Positions 35,401 to 59,082 of a stretch of 64,000 nt of DNA are shown piece by piece (the stretch's first letter is position 1; each line of letters starts with the position of its first letter). Under the pieces are notes generated by a model that worked only from the letters and a program-made list of their open reading frames with translations, did no database searches and was not told the DNA's origin. Where the stretch lies: assembly GCF_041886205.1 (NCBI RefSeq), contig NZ_CP169031.1; one strand, 5' to 3'. The position numbers and the translations under genes were made by a program. The DNA comes from Escherichia coli. GTDB taxonomy: Bacteria > Pseudomonadota > Gammaproteobacteria > Enterobacterales > Enterobacteriaceae.

Positions 35401-36715
35401 TACATTAAAGAGACACCTTTGGTGCAAACGCGTTACGTACATCAACCACCGCTGATGATTTTGTGCTCTTTGCTACTATTCATCACCGCGGGATCAGCGT
35501 AACCTCGTTGCCAATCAGTTAATAAGGAATTAGCTATGCCTAATCGCATTCCTCTCATCTCTTAACGATATCAACGATGCGTTATATGAATACTGTGAAA
35601 AAACGAGCATCACAGATGCACCTGATGCATTTGTCGAGCTACCGGTATATCTCCGCGACATCTATGCAATACGAACACCGCCCGTATCGGTGATTCACAT
35701 TGGCTATGTCCGCCTGTCCATCGAAGAAGATGAAGATCGTTATATCGTGCGCCACTATACATTGGACAGAAAAGAACTTCCTAATGAATGGAACATGAGT
35801 AATTTCTACAACGGTGAATATGGCTTAAAATCCGCTAATAATTTACGGTCATAATCTATACAGGCATGTATAACAACAACGAGCCTATTAGCTGTCAACA
35901 ACGTTATTTTCTCAAATAAGAAAAGGCACAAAACAAATTGTTTAAGGCCACAAATTGTGGCCTTAATGGAGGAGGGAGGCTTATTGGCTATGGCTAAAAA
36001 TCAAATTAGACACTTCATGTTGCTGTAGCTCATCTAGATCCGAGGCCACAAAACCTTTTCCGAAAAAATTCACAAGTAACTCACTAGCCGCATCATTATC
36101 ACCTATTACACGAAAGCCATACGGCAACGTCGCAAGTTGACGATGTAATCCTGCTGAGAAAGTCGAATCTAACAGCGCCCAGAATTCCCACAGCAGGATA
36201 ATACTCGCCTCTTAATACTGTATATATGTTGTTACGATATGTTTTTCTGTCTCTAAAAAAAGATGTTAATAGAATGCTAACCATTGAAGTGGATAAAAAT
36301 ATACAATTCCAACAAACGTTATCTTTAACAATTTTTTTCTTTGCGTTGACTTTCCCGGACACCTTGTCTGACCGAAGGTGCGCGAAAGCCACTTTTTCCT
36401 TCCTGAGTTATCCACAAAGTTATGCACTTGCAAGAGGGCCATTTTCTACATATTGTGGTGGCTAACAGATGAAATGAATGTAGATTAATTGAAGATAAGG
36501 AGAAAATTTGAGATGCAATCATGACGTTAATAGATATGGTCTGCATTACAGACCCCACCCGCATCAAGGAATTAGCCGTTCCCTGATGTTTTTCCGAAAA
36601 CATGTGCCGTAAGCTCACGTTAACGACTTTCATTCACCGAATCCAACTATATAGGGGTTGGGTTTCTACGTCAACGTGAGAGCACACAGCTTTACATTTG
36701 ACGAGGATTACCCTG

Positions 36716-36853
36716 ATGATTGTATTTTTTCAGTTTCTAAGTGCATTTTTAAATGCGCCTGTTCTTAGCCAAGTGCTGGCGATTGTCTTCATCGTGGTTC
36801 TGATATGGTTTTTCAAGTCAGTGATAAACAGAGGCGTGCGCTGGCTTATTTAA
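36716..36853 (+). CDS. Candidate small hydrophobic peptide (45 aa)
   Basis: MIVFFQFLSAFLNAPVLSQVLAIVFIVVLIWFFKSVINRGVRWLI; GAGGA 10 nt upstream; preceded by a 12-bp inverted repeat. Not in ORF track (<60 aa). Confidence 0.3.
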   Translation: MIVFFQFLSAFLNAPVLSQVLAIVFIVVLIWFFKSVINRGVRWLI

Positions 36854-37385
36854 TGTCGCGCTGAGATATTAATTCCCTTGCTGTTTAACCATTTTTTGTG
36901 TGTGCTGGTGAGCGTGTGAAGGCTCAATTTGTTGCCCACCAGTATTTACTATTTCTAAGCTCCACATTGTCACTTCCGCACAAACAACTTAGCGCGGAAT
37001 CAGTATTCGGCCCAAGATGTAAAAAGCCAACCTGCGTTATGGTTCGCATTTCCAAATAGTGTTCTGAACGCCCGTGCCGGGCGCGAGATGTGGATTAGCG
37101 TTCGCGCTATGCTGATATACGACTTTGGACTTTCCATATTGCTGACAGGCTTTGTCTGCGGTTTTTTGCAGGCTGTCCAGCCCATACCAGCCATCTGACT
37201 GGATGCTAACATTTTCGCCGTCATTGTATTGCACCATCGCACACCCAGACATAGCTAAAATCGCACCGACAATACCGCTTTTCCAAAAAGCTCTAATTAG
37301 GTCATTCGTTACCTAATGTCCGAACTGCTAAAGCATCTAAGTTGCTGTAGAATCACATCCAATTACATAAGCCTGAAATAAGTGG

Positions 37386-38948
37386 ATGAAAATGACAAGT
37401 ATTCAACAACGTGCAGAGCTTCATCGTCAAATCTGGCAAATTGCTAACGATGTCAGGGGTTCGGTCGATGGATGGGATTTTAAGCAATACGTTCTGGGCG
37501 CACTTTTCTACCGTTTTATCAGCGAAAATTTTTCCAGCCATATGGAAGCCGGTGATGACAGTATCTGTTATGCGAAACTGGATGACAGCGTAATTACTGA
37601 TGACATTAAAGACGATGCCATCAAAACTAAAGGCTACTTCATCTACCCCAGTCAGCTTTTCTGCAACGTAGCTGCGAAAGCAAATACCAATGACAGACTG
37701 AATGCAGATTTAAACAGCATCTTCGTTGCTATCGAAAGTTCTGCTTACGGTTATCCTTCAGAAGCTGACATCAAAGGTTTGTTTGCTGATTTCGATACCA
37801 CCAGTAACCGCTTGGGTAACACCGTTAAAGATAAAAATGCCCGCCTGGCTGCGGTTCTGAAAGGGGTTGAAGGGTTAAATCTGGGCAACTTTAACGAACA
37901 TCAGATTGACTTATTTGGCGATGCCTATGAGTTCCTGATTTCTAACTATGCGGCGAATGCCGGTAAGTCAGGCGGCGAGTTCTTTACACCGCAACACGTC
38001 TCTAAGCTGATTGCACAACTGGCTATGCACGGGCAGACCCACGTTAACAAAATCTACGACCCGGCAGCAGGTTCCGGTTCGCTGTTGTTGCAGGCTAAAA
38101 AGCAGTTTGATAACCATATCATCGAAGAAGGCTTTTTCGGTCAGGAAATCAACCATACGACCTATAACCTGGCGCGTATGAACATGTTTTTGCACAACAT
38201 CAACTACGACAAGTTTGATATCAGGCTGGGTAATACACTGACTGAGCCGCACTTCAGAGATGAAAAACCGTTTGATGCCATCGTTTCTAACCCGCCGTAT
38301 TCGGTGAAATGGATTGGCAGCGATGACCCGACGCTGATTAACGATGAACGTTTTGCCCCGGCTGGCGTTCTGGCCCCAAAATCCAAAGCTGACTTTGCGT
38401 TTGTATTACATGCGCTGAACTATCTTTCGGCCAAAGGTCGTGCTGCGATTGTCTGCTTCCCGGGTATTTTTTACCGTGGCGGCGCAGAGCAGAAAATCCG
38501 TCAGTATCTGGTTGACAATAACTATGTCGAAACCGTGATTTCACTGGCACCGAACCTGTTCTTTGGCACCACCATTGCAGTAAACATTCTGGTGCTGTCT
38601 AAACATAAAACGGATACCAAAGTTCAGTTTATTGACGCCAGCGAACTGTTCAAAAAAGAGACTAACAACAACATCCTTACCGATGCGCATATCAAACAGA
38701 TTATGCAGGTCTTTGACACCAAAGCAGATACTGACCATCTGGCGAAATCTGTGCCGTTTGAGACCGTGGCCGCCAATGGTTATAACTTGTCAGTTAGCAG
38801 CTATGTGGAAGCCAAAGATACCCGCGAAGTTGTAGATATCACTGAACTGAATGCCGAACTGAAAACCACCGTCAGCAAAATCGACCAGTTACGCCAAGAC
38901 ATTGATGTGATCGTGGCTAGAATTGAAGGCAGAGAGGTACAGGCATGA
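37386..38948 (+). CDS. hsdM: Type I restriction-modification methyltransferase subunit HsdM
   Basis: 520 aa; motif I ([12 protein letters not shown]) and N6-adenine catalytic motif NPPYS; N-terminal HsdM domain. Confidence 0.95.
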
Positions 38949-40153
38949 GCGAGCTGAGCTATCTGGAAAAACTGTTGGATGGGGTTGAGGTTGAGTGGGT
39001 AACATTGGGTTCTATGGCAGATATCGGTACTGGAAGCTCAAATCGTCAGGATGAAAGCGAAAATGGAATTTATCCATTCTATGTTCGCTCAAAGAATATC
39101 TTGAAGTCAGATACCTTTGAATTTGATGAGGTAGCAATAGTCATTCCTGGTGAAGGTGGAATTGGCGACATATTTCACTATGTTGAGGGGAAATATGCTC
39201 TACATCAAAGGGCGTATAGAATTCGTATCACAACTAATGCCGTAGACACGAAGTTTTTGTATTACTTCATGTCATCTAGCTTTAAGCAGTACATCTTGAC
39301 AAAAAGTGTGGGTGCTACCGCCATTTCGATAAGAAAACCCATGCTGGAAGGATTTAAAGTTCCCATTCCTAGCCCGGACAACCCGGAAAAGTCCCTTGCC
39401 ATCCAGTCTGAAATTGTTCGGATTCTGGATAAATTTACTGCAATTACCGCTGAGCTTACCGCTGAGCTTACTATGCGTAAAAAACAGTACAACTACTATC
39501 GCGACCAGTTGTTGAGTTTTAAAGAGGGTGAGGTTGAGTGGAAGACTTTGGGGGAAATTGGGAATTTTACATATGGATATGCAGCCAAAGCCATGGACTC
39601 AGGAGATGCCCGTTTCGTGAGAATTACTGACATAAATAAAGACGGGAAGCTATCGAAAGAAAACCCAATGTACGTTGAATTAAATGAGGAAAATGAGAAA
39701 TATACCTTAGAAAAAAATGATTTACTCATGGCAAGGACTGGTGCAACCTTTGGTAAAACAATGATTTTTGAAGAAGATTATCCAGCAGTATACGCTGGTT
39801 TTTTAATAAAGTTGAACCTAAATGAAACGATTATTAATGCCAAATATTACTGGCACTTTGCACAAAGTGATTTTTTTTGGGAACAGGCTAATAAATTAGT
39901 ATCTGGTGGTGGGCAACCACAGTTTAATGCTAATGCACTGAAACAAGTCAGAGTACCTATTCCATACCCATCTCACCCTCAAAAATCTTTAGACGAACAG
40001 GGGCGTATTGTGGATATTCTAGATAAGTTTGATGCAATCGCAGCTTCCATCACTGAAGGTCTTCCGCGTGAAATCGAGTTACGCCAAAAACAATACGAAT
40101 ACTACCGTGATTTACTGTTCAGTTTCCCAAAACCTGAAACTGTCAGTAATTAA
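38945..40153 (+). CDS. hsdS: Type I R-M specificity subunit HsdS
   Basis: 402 aa; two target-recognition domains separated by conserved central region containing TAELTAELT and conserved distal region ([16 protein letters not shown]); start overlaps hsdM stop. Confidence 0.9.
39446..39469 (+). repeat. Tandem 12-bp repeat (ACCGCTGAGCTT x2) encoding TAEL-TAEL in HsdS central conserved region
   Basis: Two perfect copies in tandem. Confidence 0.9.
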
Positions 40154-40274
40154 TTGACCATTGCTACCGACCGGGCCACCTTAACACCCGGTCTGTATAT
40201 AGACTATTTTTTACGCGCCGGAAGTCACTCTTAACGCCCTTCCGGCCCTTGCCAGGCGGCACAAAGGATGCGCT

Positions 40275-43200
40275 ATGACTCATCAGACACACACTATTGC
40301 TGAATCCAATAACTTTATCGTCCTTGATAAGTACATCAAAGCTGAGCCAACAGGCGACAGCTACCAGAGCGAATCGGACCTGGAACGTGAACTGATTCAG
40401 GACCTGCGGAATCAGGGCTATGAATTTATATCCGTAAAATCTCAGTCGGCTATGCTGTCCAATGTTCGGGAACAGCTTCAGAGCCTCAATGGTGTGGTGT
40501 TTAATGACAGCGAGTGGCGGCGTTTCACGGAGCAGTATCTGGACAACCCGAGCGATGGCATTCTGGATAAGACCCGTAAAATCCATATCGACTATATTTG
40601 CGACTTTATTTTTGATGACGAGCGACTTGAGAACATCTATTTGATAGATAAAAAGAATCTCATGCGCAATAAGGTGCAGATTATCCAGCAGTTTGAACAG
40701 ACGGGTTCTCATGCTAACCGTTATGACGTCACGCTCCTGGTTAATGGCTTACCACTGGTACAAATCGAACTGAAAAAGCGCGGCGTGGCGATTCGTGAGG
40801 CTTTCAACCAGATACATCGTTACAGTAAAGAGAGTTTTAACAGCGAAAATTCCCTGTTTAAGTATCTGCAACTGTTTATCATTTCTAACGGCACAGATAC
40901 CCGTTACTTTGCCAACACCACAAAGCGCGATAAAAACAGTTTTGATTTCACCATGAACTGGGCGAAATCAGACAACACGCTGATTAAAGACCTCAAAGAC
41001 TTTACCGCTACCTTTTTCCAGAAACATACTCTGCTGAATGTTCTGGTGAACTACAGCGTGTTTGACAGTAGTCAGACACTACTGGTGATGCGACCGTACC
41101 AGATTGCCGCCACCGAGCGCATTCTGTGGAAAATTAAGAGCTCCTTTACAGCGAAGAACTGGTCAAAACCGGAAAGCGGTGGGTATATCTGGCACACTAC
41201 CGGTTCTGGTAAAACCCTCACCAGCTTTAAAGCCGCGCGTCTGGCAACAGAGCTGGACTTTATTGATAAAGTCTTCTTCGTGGTCGACAGGAAAGACCTC
41301 GATTACCAGACCATGAAGGAATATCAGCGTTTTTCGCCAGATAGTGTTAACGGTTCGGAAAATACCGCAGGCCTGAAACGAAATCTGGATAAGGACGATA
41401 ACAAAATTATTGTCACCACTATTCAGAAACTCAATAACCTGATGAAAGCAGAAAGCGACTTGCCTGTATACAATCAGCAAGTGGTGTTTATATTTGATGA
41501 ATGCCACCGCAGCCAGTTTGGAGAAGCGCAGAAAAACCTGAAGAAGAAATTTAAACGCTATTATCAATTTGGTTTTACCGGCACCCCTATTTTCCTGGAA
41601 AACGCCTTAGGCTCAGAAACAACAGCCAGCGTATTTGGTCGTGAATTGCATTCGTATGTAATTACCGATGCGATTCGTGACGAAAAAGTGCTCAAGTTCA
41701 AGGTGGACTACAACGATGTGCGGCCACAGTTTAAGTCTTTAGAGACAGAAACTGACGAGAAAAAACTGAGTGCGGCTGAAAATCAGCAGGCGTTTCTTCA
41801 TCCCATGCGTATACAGGAAATTACGCAATATATTCTGAATAATTTCCGCCAGAAAACCCACCGCACCTTCCCTGGCTCAAAAGGTTTTAATGCTATGTTG
41901 GCAGTGAGCAGCGTGGATGCTGCAAAAGCCTATTACGCGACGTTTAAACGGTTACAAGAGGAAGCAGCTAATAAATCGGCTACCTATAAACCGCTGCGTG
42001 TTGCGACAATCTTCTCCTTTGCTGCCAATGAAGAACAAAATGCCATTGGTGAAATTTCCGATGAAACTTTTGATACCAGCGCAATGGACAGCAGTGCTAA
42101 AGAGTTTCTTGATGCTGCAATTCGTGAGTATAACAGCTATTTTAAAACTAACTTCAGCACCGACAGTAACGGTTTTCAGAACTACTATCGTGATTTAGCC
42201 CAACGGGTTAAAAATCAGGATATCGATCTGTTAATTGTCGTGGGGATGTTTTTAACCGGCTTCGACGCTCCAACATTGAACACGCTATTCGTCGATAAAA
42301 ACTTGCGTTTTCACGGCCTGATGCAGGCATTTTCCCGCACCAACCGCATTTATGACGCTACTAAAACCTTCGGTAATATCGTCACTTTCCGCGATCTGGA
42401 ACGCTCAACCATCGATGCCATAACGCTGTTTGGTGACAAAAACACCAAAAATGTAGTGTTAGAAAAGAGTTATGCAGAGTATATGGAAGGCTTTACTGAT
42501 GCCGCTACTGGTGAAGCTAAGCGCGGCTTTATGGCGGTAGTTGCAGAACTGGAACAACGGTTCCCTGACCCAGCCAGTATTGAAAGTGAAAAAGAGAAGA
42601 AAGACTTCGTTAAACTGTTTGGTGAATACCTGCGTACCGAGAACATCCTGCAAAACTATGATGAATTTGCCACGCTGAAAGCCCTGCAACAAATCGATCT
42701 TAGCGATCCTGTTGCAGTAGAAAAATTCAAAGCAGAACATTATGTGGATGATGAAAAGCTCGCTGAATTGCAAACAATTCGTCTCCCTGCTGATCGCAAG
42801 ATTCAGGATTATCGTTCTGCCTATAACGATATTCGCGACTGGCAGCGCCGTGAGAAAGAAGCTGAGAAAAAAGAGAAATCAACCACTGACTGGGATGACG
42901 TAGTTTTTGAGGTCGATTTGTTGAAGTCTCAGGAAATAAACCTGGATTATATCCTTGGACTGATTTTCGAACACAACAGACAAAATAAAGGCAAGGGCGA
43001 AATGATCGAAGAGGTCAAACGCTTAATTCGTTCAAGCCTGGGGAACCGTGCTAAAGAGGGCCTGGTGGTCGACTTTATTCAGCAAACGAACCTGGATGAC
43101 TTACCGGACAAAGCCAGCATCATTGACGCATTCTTTACGTTTGCTCAACGCGAACAGCAACGTGAAGCAGAAGCATTGATAAAAGAAGAAAATCTCAATG

Positions 43201-43391
43201 AAGAGGCGGCGAAACGCTATATTCGCACGTCTTTAAAACGCGAATACGCCACCGAAAATGGCACAGAATTAAACGAAACATTACCAAAACTTAGTCCGTT
43301 GAATCCGCAATATAAAACGAAAAAACAGGCAGTTTTCCAGAAAATCGTCTCGTTTATTGAGAAGTTTAAAGGCGTAGGCGGAAAAATATAG
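40275..43391 (+). CDS. hsdR: Type I R-M restriction endonuclease/translocase subunit HsdR
   Basis: 1038 aa; PD-(D/E)xK nuclease N-terminal region, SF2 helicase motifs (GSGKT Walker A; DECHRS motif II). Confidence 0.95.
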
Positions 43392-43408
43392 CCCAATTCG
43401 TGTTTTTC

Positions 43409-43436
43409 TTGCGGGTTCTTAATTAAACCCGCAAGA
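43409..43436. other. 10-bp inverted repeat hairpin downstream of hsdR
   Basis: CTTGCGGGTT-cttaatta-AACCCGCAAG; no clear U-tract on either strand. Confidence 0.5.
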
Positions 43437-43470
43437 GCTCGTGGGGTTCCAAATGGCTAATATACTCCCC

Positions 43471-43557
43471 TTACCCATGCGCGACGATGCCGCCAAAAGT
43501 GATAGAGAACAGCCAGAAATAGATCGCGGCCATAATGATTTTGAATGCCGTGTTCAT
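43471..43557 (-). CDS. Candidate 28-aa hydrophobic peptide
   Basis: MNTAFKIIMAAIYFWLFSITFGGIVAHG with RBS CAGGAG 8 nt upstream of ATG; operator-like site ~85 bp upstream. Not in ORF track. Confidence 0.3.
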   Translation of the reverse strand: MNTAFKIIMAAIYFWLFSITFGGIVAHG

Positions 43558-43639
43558 ATTTTCAGCTCCTGTGATTGATTGGATACATGCCGCGCCTTGC
43601 GGCATGTTTTTATTTTCACTTTCTCTGTTTTAAAAATCA

Positions 43640-43656
43640 AGATTTATTAGAGTAAT
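43640..43656 (-). promoter_or_regulatory. C1 operator-like site
   Basis: AGATTTATTAGAGTAAT, 15/17 match. Confidence 0.55.
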
Positions 43657-57567: not shown

Positions 57568-58001
57568 TACAGATAATCTTCCACACGAAGACCTAAACGA
57601 CGGCCTACTTCTTCCAGTACTTTGTGTTCTGCTGGCTCGATTTCACCGTCCGCTTCTGCAATTGTCAGCATGTTAACGAATACTTCTTCCGCTTCTTTTG
57701 GATCGTTTTTGATATCTTCAATTTCGCGAAGGATATTCATGCGACCAACACGGAAGCCAGCTTCCAGTTGCTCGGTAAAGCGGGTAATTGTTGCAGTAAT
57801 TTCGTTACCAAAATGACTAAGACGCGGATTAGAGCGGACAAGCTGATCAAGTTTCGCTGTTTCTTCTTTTTCGATTTCACCATCAGCGGCAGACACCAAC
57901 AAACAGCCACCGATGATGGCCTCCATCAGATCGCGATTCTCAACTTTTTTCAGCTCTACTTTTGCAGAAGCGACTTTCTTGCCGAACAATTTACCGAACA
58001 T
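57567..58001 (-). CDS. tciA: TerB-like tellurite-resistance-domain protein (TciA-like)
   Basis: 144 aa; two Asp/Glu metal-binding repeats (AADGEIEKEE ... EADGEIEPAE) typical of TerB domain. Confidence 0.7.
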   Translation of the reverse strand: MFGKLFGKKVASAKVELKKVENRDLMEAIIGGCLLVSAADGEIEKEETAKLDQLVRSNPRLSHFGNEITATITRFTEQLEAGFRVGRMNILREIEDIKNDPKEAEEVFVNMLTIAEADGEIEPAEHKVLEEVGRRLGLRVEDYL

Positions 58002-58928
58002 TGGTTATCCCTCAATAAAAGTGACATATTTATTAGATTGCGGTGCCGAGTGCCTCCCGGTGACGTTAACCAGTTAACAATTAACGTCGGAATGTTTAAC
58101 CATTAAGGAGGATTGTTTTAACTGTTCCGCGTGCGCTTAGCCGCATTCACCGCAACGGAAAGAGCATTCCTGGTGGACCTGTAGATTGGGATATGAACCC
58201 GTTACAGGAGAATGCTCTTACCTGTTACGTGCTCCGTTTCGTGGAGCTAACGGCGGGTGATCGGGCCGCACCAGACTGGACTTATTTCAGCGTTATGCTC
58301 ATGCCAGAGAATCAAACTGTGATGGTCGGTGCTGAACTCCGACACAGGGTTGTAGCAAGCCCCGCAAAGCGCGCACTACTGTAGTTGCGGCACATCAGCC
58401 TGTGCATTCACCACAATGTTGAGAACACTGGTTGTCACGCTGCAACGCAACATTTATTCGTAGATTGGGATATGACCCCGTTACGCCAGTGTTCTCAACG
58501 TTGTAGTGCCGGTTACGGTTCCGGCCAGGCCTCTTCCTCAACGGGGTGTTCTCCATACGGACTACCGTTTATTGGTCGTTCCTGCGGTTTATGTTGTGAA
58601 GCCAGATGCTTATCTTCTGGTTGCTTCAAAGAGCTGCACTTCATCACAACGGTAAGAGCACTCGATGCATTTAAGCCAAGCCCCATAAGGGAGAATGCCC
58701 TTACCTGTTGTGTTGTGATGACCGGTGCTGATCTCCGGCTTGCGGTTATTTCAGACTCTCACGGGCGTTTAATTGCCCCGCCGAACAGCTCTTTTCCGCA
58801 ATAGCTGCAATGTCTTTCGCGCATCAGCCTGCGCATTCATCACAACGGTAAGGGTACTTCGTAGGGATTCGAACCCTCTGCCAAGCTCGGCGATCTCCGA
58901 CGTCGCAAAATACCCTTACCTGTTGTGC

Positions 58929-59004
58929 TGGTGCCGATTAACGGACTCGAACCGCTGACATCCTGCTTACAAGGCAGGCGCTCTACCAACTGAGCTAAAC
59001 CGGC
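58929..59004 (-). tRNA. tRNA-Thr (anticodon TGT)
   Basis: 76 nt: acceptor GCCGGTT/AATCGGC, D-arm GCTCAGTTGGTAGAGC, anticodon loop CTTGTAA, T-arm AGCGGTTCGAGTCCGTT, CCA encoded. Confidence 0.9.
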
Positions 59005-59006
59005 AT

Positions 59007-59082
59007 TGGCGATGGTGGATGGATTTGAACCATCGACCCGTTGATTAACAGTCAACCGCTCTAACCGCTGAGCTACACCATC
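59007..59082 (-). tRNA. tRNA-Asn (anticodon GTT)
   Basis: 76 nt: acceptor GATGGTG/CACCATC, D-arm GCTCAGCGGTTAGAGC, anticodon loop CTGTTAA, T-arm GATGGTTCAAATCCATC, CCA encoded; 2 nt from tRNA-Thr. Confidence 0.9.

Follow-up and report, generated by a model that had tools for sequence, protein, structure and literature searches.

We analysed a 64,000-nt stretch of Escherichia coli DNA (contig NZ_CP169031.1; henceforth the window, at its full length), which belongs to a P1-like phage-plasmid, and studied three small open reading frames (ORFs) that flank its type I restriction-modification (R-M) cassette. To the left of the cassette lie ORF45, which encodes a predicted single-pass membrane peptide of 45 residues (36716-36853, plus strand), and the remnant of a lipoprotein gene (37037-37297, minus strand); to its right lies ORF28, which encodes a hydrophobic peptide of 28 residues (43471-43557, minus strand) and is preceded by an operator for the C1 repressor. 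The ORFs, the inverted repeat next to ORF45, the ribosome-binding site (RBS) and the operator-like site that a preliminary description of this DNA had listed are all present where it had placed them. The cassette itself, as read from the ORF list, comprises hsdM (37386-38948), hsdS (38945-40153) and hsdR (40275-43391), all on the plus strand. The product of hsdR aligned with HsdR of EcoR124I (PDB 2w00) over 1038 of 1038 residues with a score of 2278 bits, and because this alignment runs from end to end we assigned the cassette to type IC, i.e., the EcoR124 family, an assignment with which the order hsdM-hsdS-hsdR also agrees. Among the known type IC loci (EcoR124I, EcoDXXI and EcoprrI), the HsdR protein of the window is essentially that of EcoR124I.

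The DNA around the cassette is that of phage P1 and its relatives. Specifically, positions 36400-36914 matched phages P1, P7 and SJ46 at 85-88% identity (with P1 and P7 as the best phage matches), as well as hundreds of P1-type plasmids of E. coli and Salmonella. To the left, the neighbouring ORFs correspond to pdcB, doc, phd and humD of P1, and to the right to pap and pmgS; a pattern search found 14 C1-operator-like sites in the window against 0.34 expected by chance. In P1 the interval from upfM to pap is occupied by pmgV-pmgU-pmgT (P1 GenBank feature table), whereas in the window the same interval holds hsdM-hsdS-hsdR on the opposite strand, such that a cassette extending over approximately 37296-43466 takes the place of pmgT-pmgU-pmgV. 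An EcoR124-type hsd locus in place of P1 genes is an arrangement already documented in the GenBank annotation of P1: the record NC_005856 contains miscellaneous features noting flanks that are 96-98% identical to the DNA on both sides of the EcoDXXI and R124/3 hsd loci. Moreover, P1-like phage-plasmids have eight hypervariable regions, among them pmgT-humD (PMC9603915), and R-M systems are among the genes most often swapped between phage-plasmids and plasmids (PMC10879196).

Overall, we consider it likely that the three small ORFs border a cargo replacement in a P1-like phage-plasmid and are not themselves cargo. They would mark the two edges of a swap in which an incoming type IC cassette replaced pmgV-pmgU-pmgT: ORF45 and ORF28 are conserved P1-backbone genes standing just outside the swapped segment on the left and on the right, respectively, where they anchor the hotspot, and the lipoprotein gene would represent an earlier, alternative cargo of the same hotspot which the incoming cassette truncated. 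The preliminary description had proposed instead that such peptides were delivered with the R-M island. Two sets of comparisons contradict this: P1, P7 and SJ46 lack hsd genes and yet have ORF45 and ORF28 at the same positions, and the cassette found on IncF plasmids comes without ORF45 and without the lipoprotein gene, with ORF28 present there only as a remnant cut by the insertion sequence IS1.

Junctions of the type IC cassette

The left junction of the cassette was placed at 37291-37299 in a four-way alignment of the window, the IncF plasmid pMS6192A-NDM, pFG92-1 and a related plasmid without hsd genes (L004). Homology to the intact lipoprotein locus stops at CTCTA (37291-37295), and homology to the IncF cassette begins with AGGTCATTCGT, i.e., from 37299 onward. 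The right junction lies at 43466-43467 (alignment of the window, P1, pMS6192A-NDM and pTB402), with P1 homology stopping at ...GGGTAAGGGG (43467), 4 nt beyond the stop codon of ORF28; this junction is identical in the window, pTB402 and the IncF plasmids. Reading the sequence between the convergent hsdR and ORF28, we found a 10-bp GC-rich hairpin at the 3' end of hsdR (CTTGCGGGTT-8 nt-AACCCGCAAG; 43408-43435), which is part of the cassette: it also lies downstream of hsdR in the IncF and pTB402 copies and is absent from P1. Terminal inverted repeats and target duplications at the cassette ends were considered as well, and the only candidate was a weak ATTAG match that we judged not to be meaningful.

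In pMS6192A-NDM (NZ_CP054941; L008 and L010), the P1 genes phd-doc lie to the left of the cassette, and both ORF45 and the lipoprotein gene are absent. On the right-hand side of the IncF copies, IS1 removed the start of ORF28, which is left only as a remnant of the flank. The left junction of the window falls inside the lipoprotein gene, approximately 440 bp past ORF45, whereas in the IncF plasmids and pDXX1 it lies next to phd-doc. The R124/3 and EcoDXXI loci have the same P1 right flank downstream of hsdR as the window, including ORF28; compared to the type IC loci of conjugative plasmids, the cassette studied here lies in a complete P1-like phage-plasmid. Tyndall et al. are said to have described in 1997 (Mol Microbiol 23:729) that type IC hsd loci are flanked by phage P1 DNA. 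The alignments of the window with the IncF copies show that the type IC cassette moved between P1-type and conjugative replicons together with its P1 flanks. Near the type IC cassette of pMS6192A-NDM we also observed a second hsdR fragment and an IS5 element.

ORF45 and ORF28 in the P1 backbone

ORF45 starts with ATG, ends with TAA and has a GAGGA Shine-Dalgarno sequence 8 nt upstream. Its product (MIVFFQFLSAFLNAPVLSQVLAIVFIVVLIWFFKSVINRGVRWLI) has a grand average of hydropathy (GRAVY) of 1.72 and a best 19-residue hydropathy of 2.59 (rank 2 of the 265 small ATG-initiated ORFs of 28-60 residues in the window), with one hydrophobic span (residues 15-33) followed by a basic C-terminal tail. The frame was found at the same site in P1 (L001 4317-4454), P7, SJ46 (coding sequence J46_0085) and RefSeq plasmids, and a third group of alleles, from metagenomic P1-like contigs (L011 and L013), has the same start, stop and length. 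Its position is constant between the hot/upf genes and the variable cargo, where it is the sole gene on its strand among its neighbours. The alleles diverge by 14-25% at the nucleotide level and by 22-42% at the amino-acid level, with replacements that are mostly exchanges between I, V, L and F and with dN/dS ratios (non-synonymous to synonymous substitution rates) of 0.27-0.48; indels of 1-4 nt occur directly outside the frame and none inside it. Neutral simulations left ORF45 intact, with changes as few and as conservative as those observed, in about 1.6% of cases (P ~0.016) in each of two lineages. We take this as moderate, not overwhelming, evidence that ORF45 is a translated gene.

The P1 allele of ORF45 is annotated by the Prokaryotic Genome Annotation Pipeline (PGAP) as WP_000123562.1, a ‘hypothetical protein’ in RefSeq; this protein and J46_0085 of SJ46 represent the same gene at the same position, and the exact ORF45 sequence of the window is already found in 43 public contigs. 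The original P1 annotation lists upfM (37 residues) instead, which is antisense to the 5' end of ORF45. Since upfM has just 12 codons in the window (36633-36746, minus strand), ORF45 is the better gene model there, and the P1 annotation of upfM is probably a mis-call for ORF45 on the opposite strand. A profile search against 1.84 billion representative proteins matched only P1-family alleles of ORF45 and frameshifted variants (the natural alleles P0003, P0004, P0066 and P0067 have frameshifted C-termini), and neither ORF45 nor ORF28 matched any family in Pfam, NCBIfam, PHROGs or PADLOC. Upstream of ORF45 there is no P1 late-promoter box (AAGTTACTT), nor did the pattern search of the window place a C1 operator near it. 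ORF45 would be a stand-alone gene, transcribed away from an invariant upstream block; its product would insert into the inner membrane with the basic C-terminus (K34, R39 and R42) in the cytoplasm, and may act as a small accessory membrane protein of the phage-plasmid that takes no part in restriction.

A 33-residue ORF (MVLLLDAFLSAPLLSQCAATVFLLLLIWLKKME) on the Klebsiella pneumoniae IncFII plasmid NZ_CP098386 (L006 603-704), with similar frames in Citrobacter and Enterobacter plasmids, has the motif AFLxAPxLSQ...VF..L.IW in common with ORF45 (tblastn E ~0.1), and its surroundings are not those of P1. The two peptides could be distantly homologous, or their similarity could be due to chance, both being hydrophobic.

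Alignment and promoter scanning delimited a near-invariant, 120-bp intergenic block upstream of ORF45 (36563-36682), which contains the PupfN promoter and both arms of the inverted repeat. The block is almost invariant in the window, P1, P7, L011 and L004, whereas the adjacent ORF45 differs by 14-25%. PupfN is a sigma-70 promoter on the minus strand (-35 TTGACG at 36674-36669, 17-nt spacer, -10 TATAGT at 36651-36646; 10 of 12 matches); it is divergent from ORF45, 42 nt upstream, and the P1 annotation names PupfN at the homologous place. The repeat arms (36614-36625 and 36669-36680) are 12 nt each with one mismatch (92% complementary), lie 43 nt apart and are invariant across five diverged alleles; by our own rough estimate, about one such inverted repeat per kb would be expected by chance. 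The -35 hexamer lies within the right arm, and the left arm falls at approximately +15 to +26 of the PupfN transcript; given this placement on promoter and transcript, the repeat belongs to the divergent promoter and not to ORF45.

The minus-strand RNA that would start at PupfN (36640 to 36525, ~115 nt) is predicted to form three hairpins (z = -3.17), which RNAalifold retained with three compensatory pairs in six sequences, and in two alleles indels disrupt the UpfN/Upf91.4 frame that overlaps it. It is thus a possible structured leader or small RNA (sRNA). Rfam searches of the whole window at gathering thresholds, and of 36200-37400 at E <= 10, returned three tRNAs and noise only. An antisense sRNA, also raised in the preliminary description, was looked for over both peptide genes, and neither an antisense promoter over ORF45 or ORF28 nor an Rfam match was found.

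ORF28 encodes MNTAFKIIMAAIYFWLFSITFGGIVAHG, whose best 19-residue hydropathy is 2.10. AGGAG precedes its ATG by 8 nt, and the ORF is 100% identical in P1, P7, SJ46, RCS47 and others. In P1 it is the first cistron behind the C1 operator Op88/OpmgT and the predicted pmgT promoters, directly upstream of pmgT: its stop codon precedes the pmgT ATG by 9 nt, and the RBS of pmgT is provided by its last codons. The homologous operator in the window (ATTACTCTAATAAATCT; 43640-43656, minus strand), recognised from the P1 annotation and the pattern search, has two mismatches to the P1 C1-operator consensus and one to Op88, and abuts the pap stop codon. The earlier call of an operator-like site was therefore borne out, and with this 17-bp operator 82 nt upstream of its ATG, ORF28 would be a member of a C1-controlled operon. 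Between the operator/promoter and ORF28, a terminator scan found a 10-bp hairpin (ACATGCCGC-loop-GCGGCATGT; 43585-43607) which, with TTTTTATTTTC next to it on the plus strand, resembles a strong intrinsic terminator; a Salmonella relative (L022 2443-2467) has a hairpin of different sequence and without the T-run at the same place. Candidate roles for the hairpin include an attenuator, the end of an upstream operon, or a terminator for antisense or hsdR read-through.

The coding status of ORF28 could be assessed with the diverged Salmonella P1-like plasmid NZ_CP077703, in which the syntenic site after pmgS has retained a homologous ORF (MHTVFKLAMAAFYIWIFTIVFTGI...) along with its Shine-Dalgarno sequence, a hairpin and a C1 operator. 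Over 25 codons, the proportion of synonymous differences (pS) was 0.83 and that of non-synonymous differences (pN) 0.26, with 9/5/15 differences at the three codon positions, whereas the two other frames over ORF28 showed no such contrast (~0.45 vs. 0.38). Because synonymous divergence from this syntenic homologue is saturated while non-synonymous divergence is low, we regard ORF28 as a genuine coding gene. It is labelled ‘membrane protein’ in SJ46, and PGAP calls a 44-residue version (WP_029399105.1), both being the same gene at the same position; the window's exact 44-residue ORF sequence is present in at least 1000 public contigs. The 44-residue model begins inside the hairpin and lacks a Shine-Dalgarno sequence, and the 28-residue start is the conserved one. 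Given its operator, ORF28 would be silent in the lysogen and made upon C1 derepression, and its translation in P1 is probably coupled to that of pmgT; in the window ORF28 would be a stranded last cistron, lying against the hsd cassette.

Some features lie further away from the two genes. The segment 35362-36400, from humD to the upf region, is without the P1 genes lxr, hot and upfO and matches other P1-like plasmids at 98%; some of these plasmids have an extra insert of ~620 bp there with a gene for a ‘DNA-binding protein’. A late-promoter-like box (GAGTTACTT) is found at 36074-36082 on the minus strand. Finally, two very hydrophobic minus-strand ORFs of 35 residues (57296-57403) and 54 residues (57403-57567) lie beside three tRNA genes (57220-59082), the former being the most hydrophobic small ORF of the window.

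The lipoprotein remnant

The third small ORF aligns with intact copies of a prophage lipoprotein gene (PHROG 7757) and is a 5'-truncated remnant of it. The longest canonical ORF of this frame is 37037-37252 (minus strand, 71 residues), and the frame stays open upstream to 37312 (91 codons, reading VTNDLIRAFWKSGIVGAILAMSGC), where it is bounded by a stop codon at 37315-37313. From this stop to the lipobox (...LIRAFWKSGIVGAILAMSGC) the frame contains no ATG, GTG or TTG. The lipobox AMSGC fits the PROSITE pattern in both the window frame and the intact homologue (acylated Cys codon at 37243-37241), and the window frame has neither the start codon nor the positively charged n-region of a signal peptide. 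The earlier lipoprotein call was thus right for the gene family, in which the lipobox is intact, and the absence of an in-frame start that accompanied it was confirmed. As for the wider proposal of small hydrophobic genes at these sites, it holds for ORF45 and ORF28, whose reading frames, when checked in homologous elements, proved conserved, and fails for the lipoprotein, which is a truncated remnant.

An intact gene for 88 residues (MLHRVLWKSVIVGAMLAMSGC...; MLHRVLWKSVIVGAMLAMSGCAMVQYNDG...) is present in related plasmids without hsd genes (L004 and L021), and its product matched the whole profile of PHROG 7757 (positions 1-74 of 74; E 1.4e-53), an uncharacterised family of small lipoproteins from enterobacterial prophages and P1-like plasmids. 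Homologues of 82-90 residues occur in prophages of Klebsiella, Enterobacter, Serratia, Citrobacter and other genera. In an alignment of 24 family members the lipobox is conserved as L(S/T/V)GC, and wherever the N-terminus is intact it opens with Met, followed by a basic n-region and the lipobox (MLHRVLWK... or MK...), meaning that the signal peptides vary but are canonical (M-K/R...L(S/T/V)GC). Over the aligned region, the identity of the mature domains to the query is 64-98%, and two further cysteines are conserved in them. The window copy has the same lipobox and cysteines as the members of PHROG 7757 but lacks the first three codons, the RBS and the promoter: the cassette replaced codons 1-3 (M-L-H), the RBS and the promoter by the hsdM leader, with the junction inside the fourth codon.

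The mature domain of the window copy has two residue differences from the intact homologue (it is ~95% identical to intact members), and A61V affects an invariant column. Among sister copies sharing the junction, L019 has a frameshift and D37N, L003 and L020 have A67V and P71L, and L018 has changes in the signal peptide only; the junction-sharing copies examined thus appear to be under relaxed constraint. The identity profile along the segment is a mosaic, which is why we ascribe the synonymous differences between the remnant and the intact allele to recombination with a further intact allele. On these grounds, the remnant is most likely an untranslated, decaying 5'-truncated pseudogene.

AlphaFold2 predicted a confident, small beta-beta-alpha-beta-beta domain for the lipoprotein (predicted local distance difference test, pLDDT, of 84). 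Foldseek found nothing in PDB at E <= 0.001 with this model, and there was no informative match in BFVD, the best being an unnamed ‘Lipoprotein’ (E 1.1e-3). Based on Pfam and on Foldseek searches of PDB and BFVD, PHROG 7757 has no sequence or fold relation to Cor, Llp, TraT, Bor/Iss or Rz1. In lambdoid Klebsiella prophages (L015 4908-6261), a PHROG 7757 lipoprotein gene lies shortly downstream of a gene for DNA polymerase III theta (hot-like), a neighbourhood which echoes the P1-family layout; an ORF45-like gene was looked for there, and none was found between the theta gene and the lipoprotein gene.

Alternative readings and implications

Could the peptides be accessory effectors (type I toxins, abortive-infection factors or an exclusion lipoprotein, as the preliminary description had suggested) which arrived with the R-M island and work with, or stabilise, the cassette? 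All three ORFs lie within ~650 bp of the cassette ends, IncF plasmids retain ORF28 next to the 3' end of hsdR, and both peptides are strongly hydrophobic. We nevertheless find this highly improbable, given that ORF45 and ORF28 are found at the same sites in P1, P7 and SJ46 without hsd genes, that in the IncF copy phd-doc takes the left-hand place of ORF45 and the lipoprotein gene while the ORF28 on the right is cut by IS1, and that the lipoprotein copy was truncated by the cassette itself. The proposed identities also found no counterpart among Pfam toxin families, PADLOC defence models, NCBIfam or exclusion-lipoprotein families; ORF45 and ORF28 are small (<60 residues) hydrophobic membrane peptides as type I toxins are, but none of the families Hok/Gef, Ldr, TisB, Ibs, ShoB, Fst, ZorO and DinQ was matched by either in Pfam and NCBIfam at E up to 1. 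A narrower alternative is that ORF45 is the toxin of a type I toxin-antitoxin (TA)-like module of the P1 backbone, with the divergent PupfN RNA as its antitoxin, which would help to retain the hotspot next to phd-doc. ORF45 resembles known type I systems (tisB/istR-1, zorO/orzO and dinQ/agrB) in being a small, very hydrophobic peptide with a basic tail, the sole gene on its strand among its neighbours, beside a strong, invariant divergent promoter 42 nt upstream which would yield a structured RNA (the three hairpins and compensatory pairs described above, with an overlapping UpfN frame that is not conserved). It differs from them in several respects: ORF45 is not homologous to Hok, Ldr, TisB, Ibs, Fst or similar toxins, and no Rfam family matches; RNAduplex found no significant complementarity between the PupfN RNA and the ORF45 mRNA (67 of 500 shuffles were as good); no promoter of ORF45 was detectable, hence no transcript overlap is demonstrated; and the ORF45 mRNA region (36590-36860 folded) is not unusually structured (z = -0.67) and has no hok-like, inhibitory fold. 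The frameshifted ORF45 alleles may reflect either relaxed constraint or selection against a toxic product and so do not discriminate. Weighing these points, we regard the TA reading of ORF45 as improbable. The broader idea that ORF45, the PupfN block and the three-hairpin RNA form an undescribed regulatory or TA-like module by phd-doc, with ORF28 as a C1-controlled membrane effector, appears doubtful to us; if true, a small membrane-peptide gene would stand on either side of the hotspot, and the two would contribute to cargo retention, lysis timing or exclusion.

Several observations do pull against the interpretation of ORF45 and ORF28 as backbone genes and of the lipoprotein frame as a pseudogene. 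The support for ORF45 as a coding sequence comes from three independent allele lineages, with codon-position differences of 11/8/12 and an amino-acid identity near the neutral expectation, and the promoter scan found no sigma-70 promoter for it on the plus strand. ORF28 and its flanks are near-invariant in most P1-like elements, which makes most comparisons uninformative about coding, and CRISPR interference and deletion surveys of P1 covered only annotated neighbours of these ORFs, which are non-essential. The codon-position differences and amino-acid identity of ORF45 and the near-invariance of ORF28, together with the 265 ATG-initiated ORFs of 28-60 residues in the window, would fit ORF45 and/or ORF28 being untranslated chance frames in T-rich regulatory DNA. 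We think this hardly likely, considering the contrast between pS and pN of ORF28 that is missing from the other frames, the fixed length, start and stop of ORF45 over 14-25% divergence with indels just outside, the result of the joint simulation in each of two lineages (P ~0.016) and the good Shine-Dalgarno spacing of both frames. On the side of the lipoprotein, the remnant retains a perfect lipobox and a frame open over 91 codons, and it differs from the intact allele by 10 synonymous and 4 non-synonymous changes. It might accordingly still be functional, either as a lipoprotein translated from ATT (37297-37295) and acting in superinfection exclusion, or as a cytoplasmic 71-residue protein from the ATG at 37252, and the very strong conservation of the mature domain across Enterobacteriaceae prophages and the annotation of the exact 71-residue product in six public contigs (a sister variant in 185) could be cited in its favour. 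By contrast, neither ATG, GTG or TTG nor a Shine-Dalgarno sequence is found ahead of ATT, and the native region upstream has given way to the hsdM leader; all family members with an intact N-terminus begin with Met and a basic n-region; A61V falls at an invariant column, and sister copies have a frameshift and changes at nearly invariant columns; the mosaic profile suggests that the synonymous differences came from an intact allele by recombination; and without a signal peptide the two extra cysteines would presumably sit in the reducing cytoplasm. A functional remnant is thus unlikely, and we retain the pseudogene reading.

The exact sequences of all three ORFs can already be found in public databases, labelled as ‘hypothetical’ or ‘membrane’ proteins. 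What had appeared as ‘low-coding’ flanks of the R-M cassette would be junction scars together with two conserved P1 microproteins, and not new defence accessories. The value of this result lies mainly in annotation: it supports ORF45 over the antisense upfM in P1-family genomes, the 28-residue start for the Op88-proximal peptide, and the flagging of the 71-residue ‘hypothetical protein’ beside hsdM as a 5'-truncated pseudogene. It also provides base-level coordinates for both junctions of a type IC hsd cassette in the P1 backbone, and thereby a concrete case in which phage-plasmids and conjugative plasmids have exchanged an R-M system.

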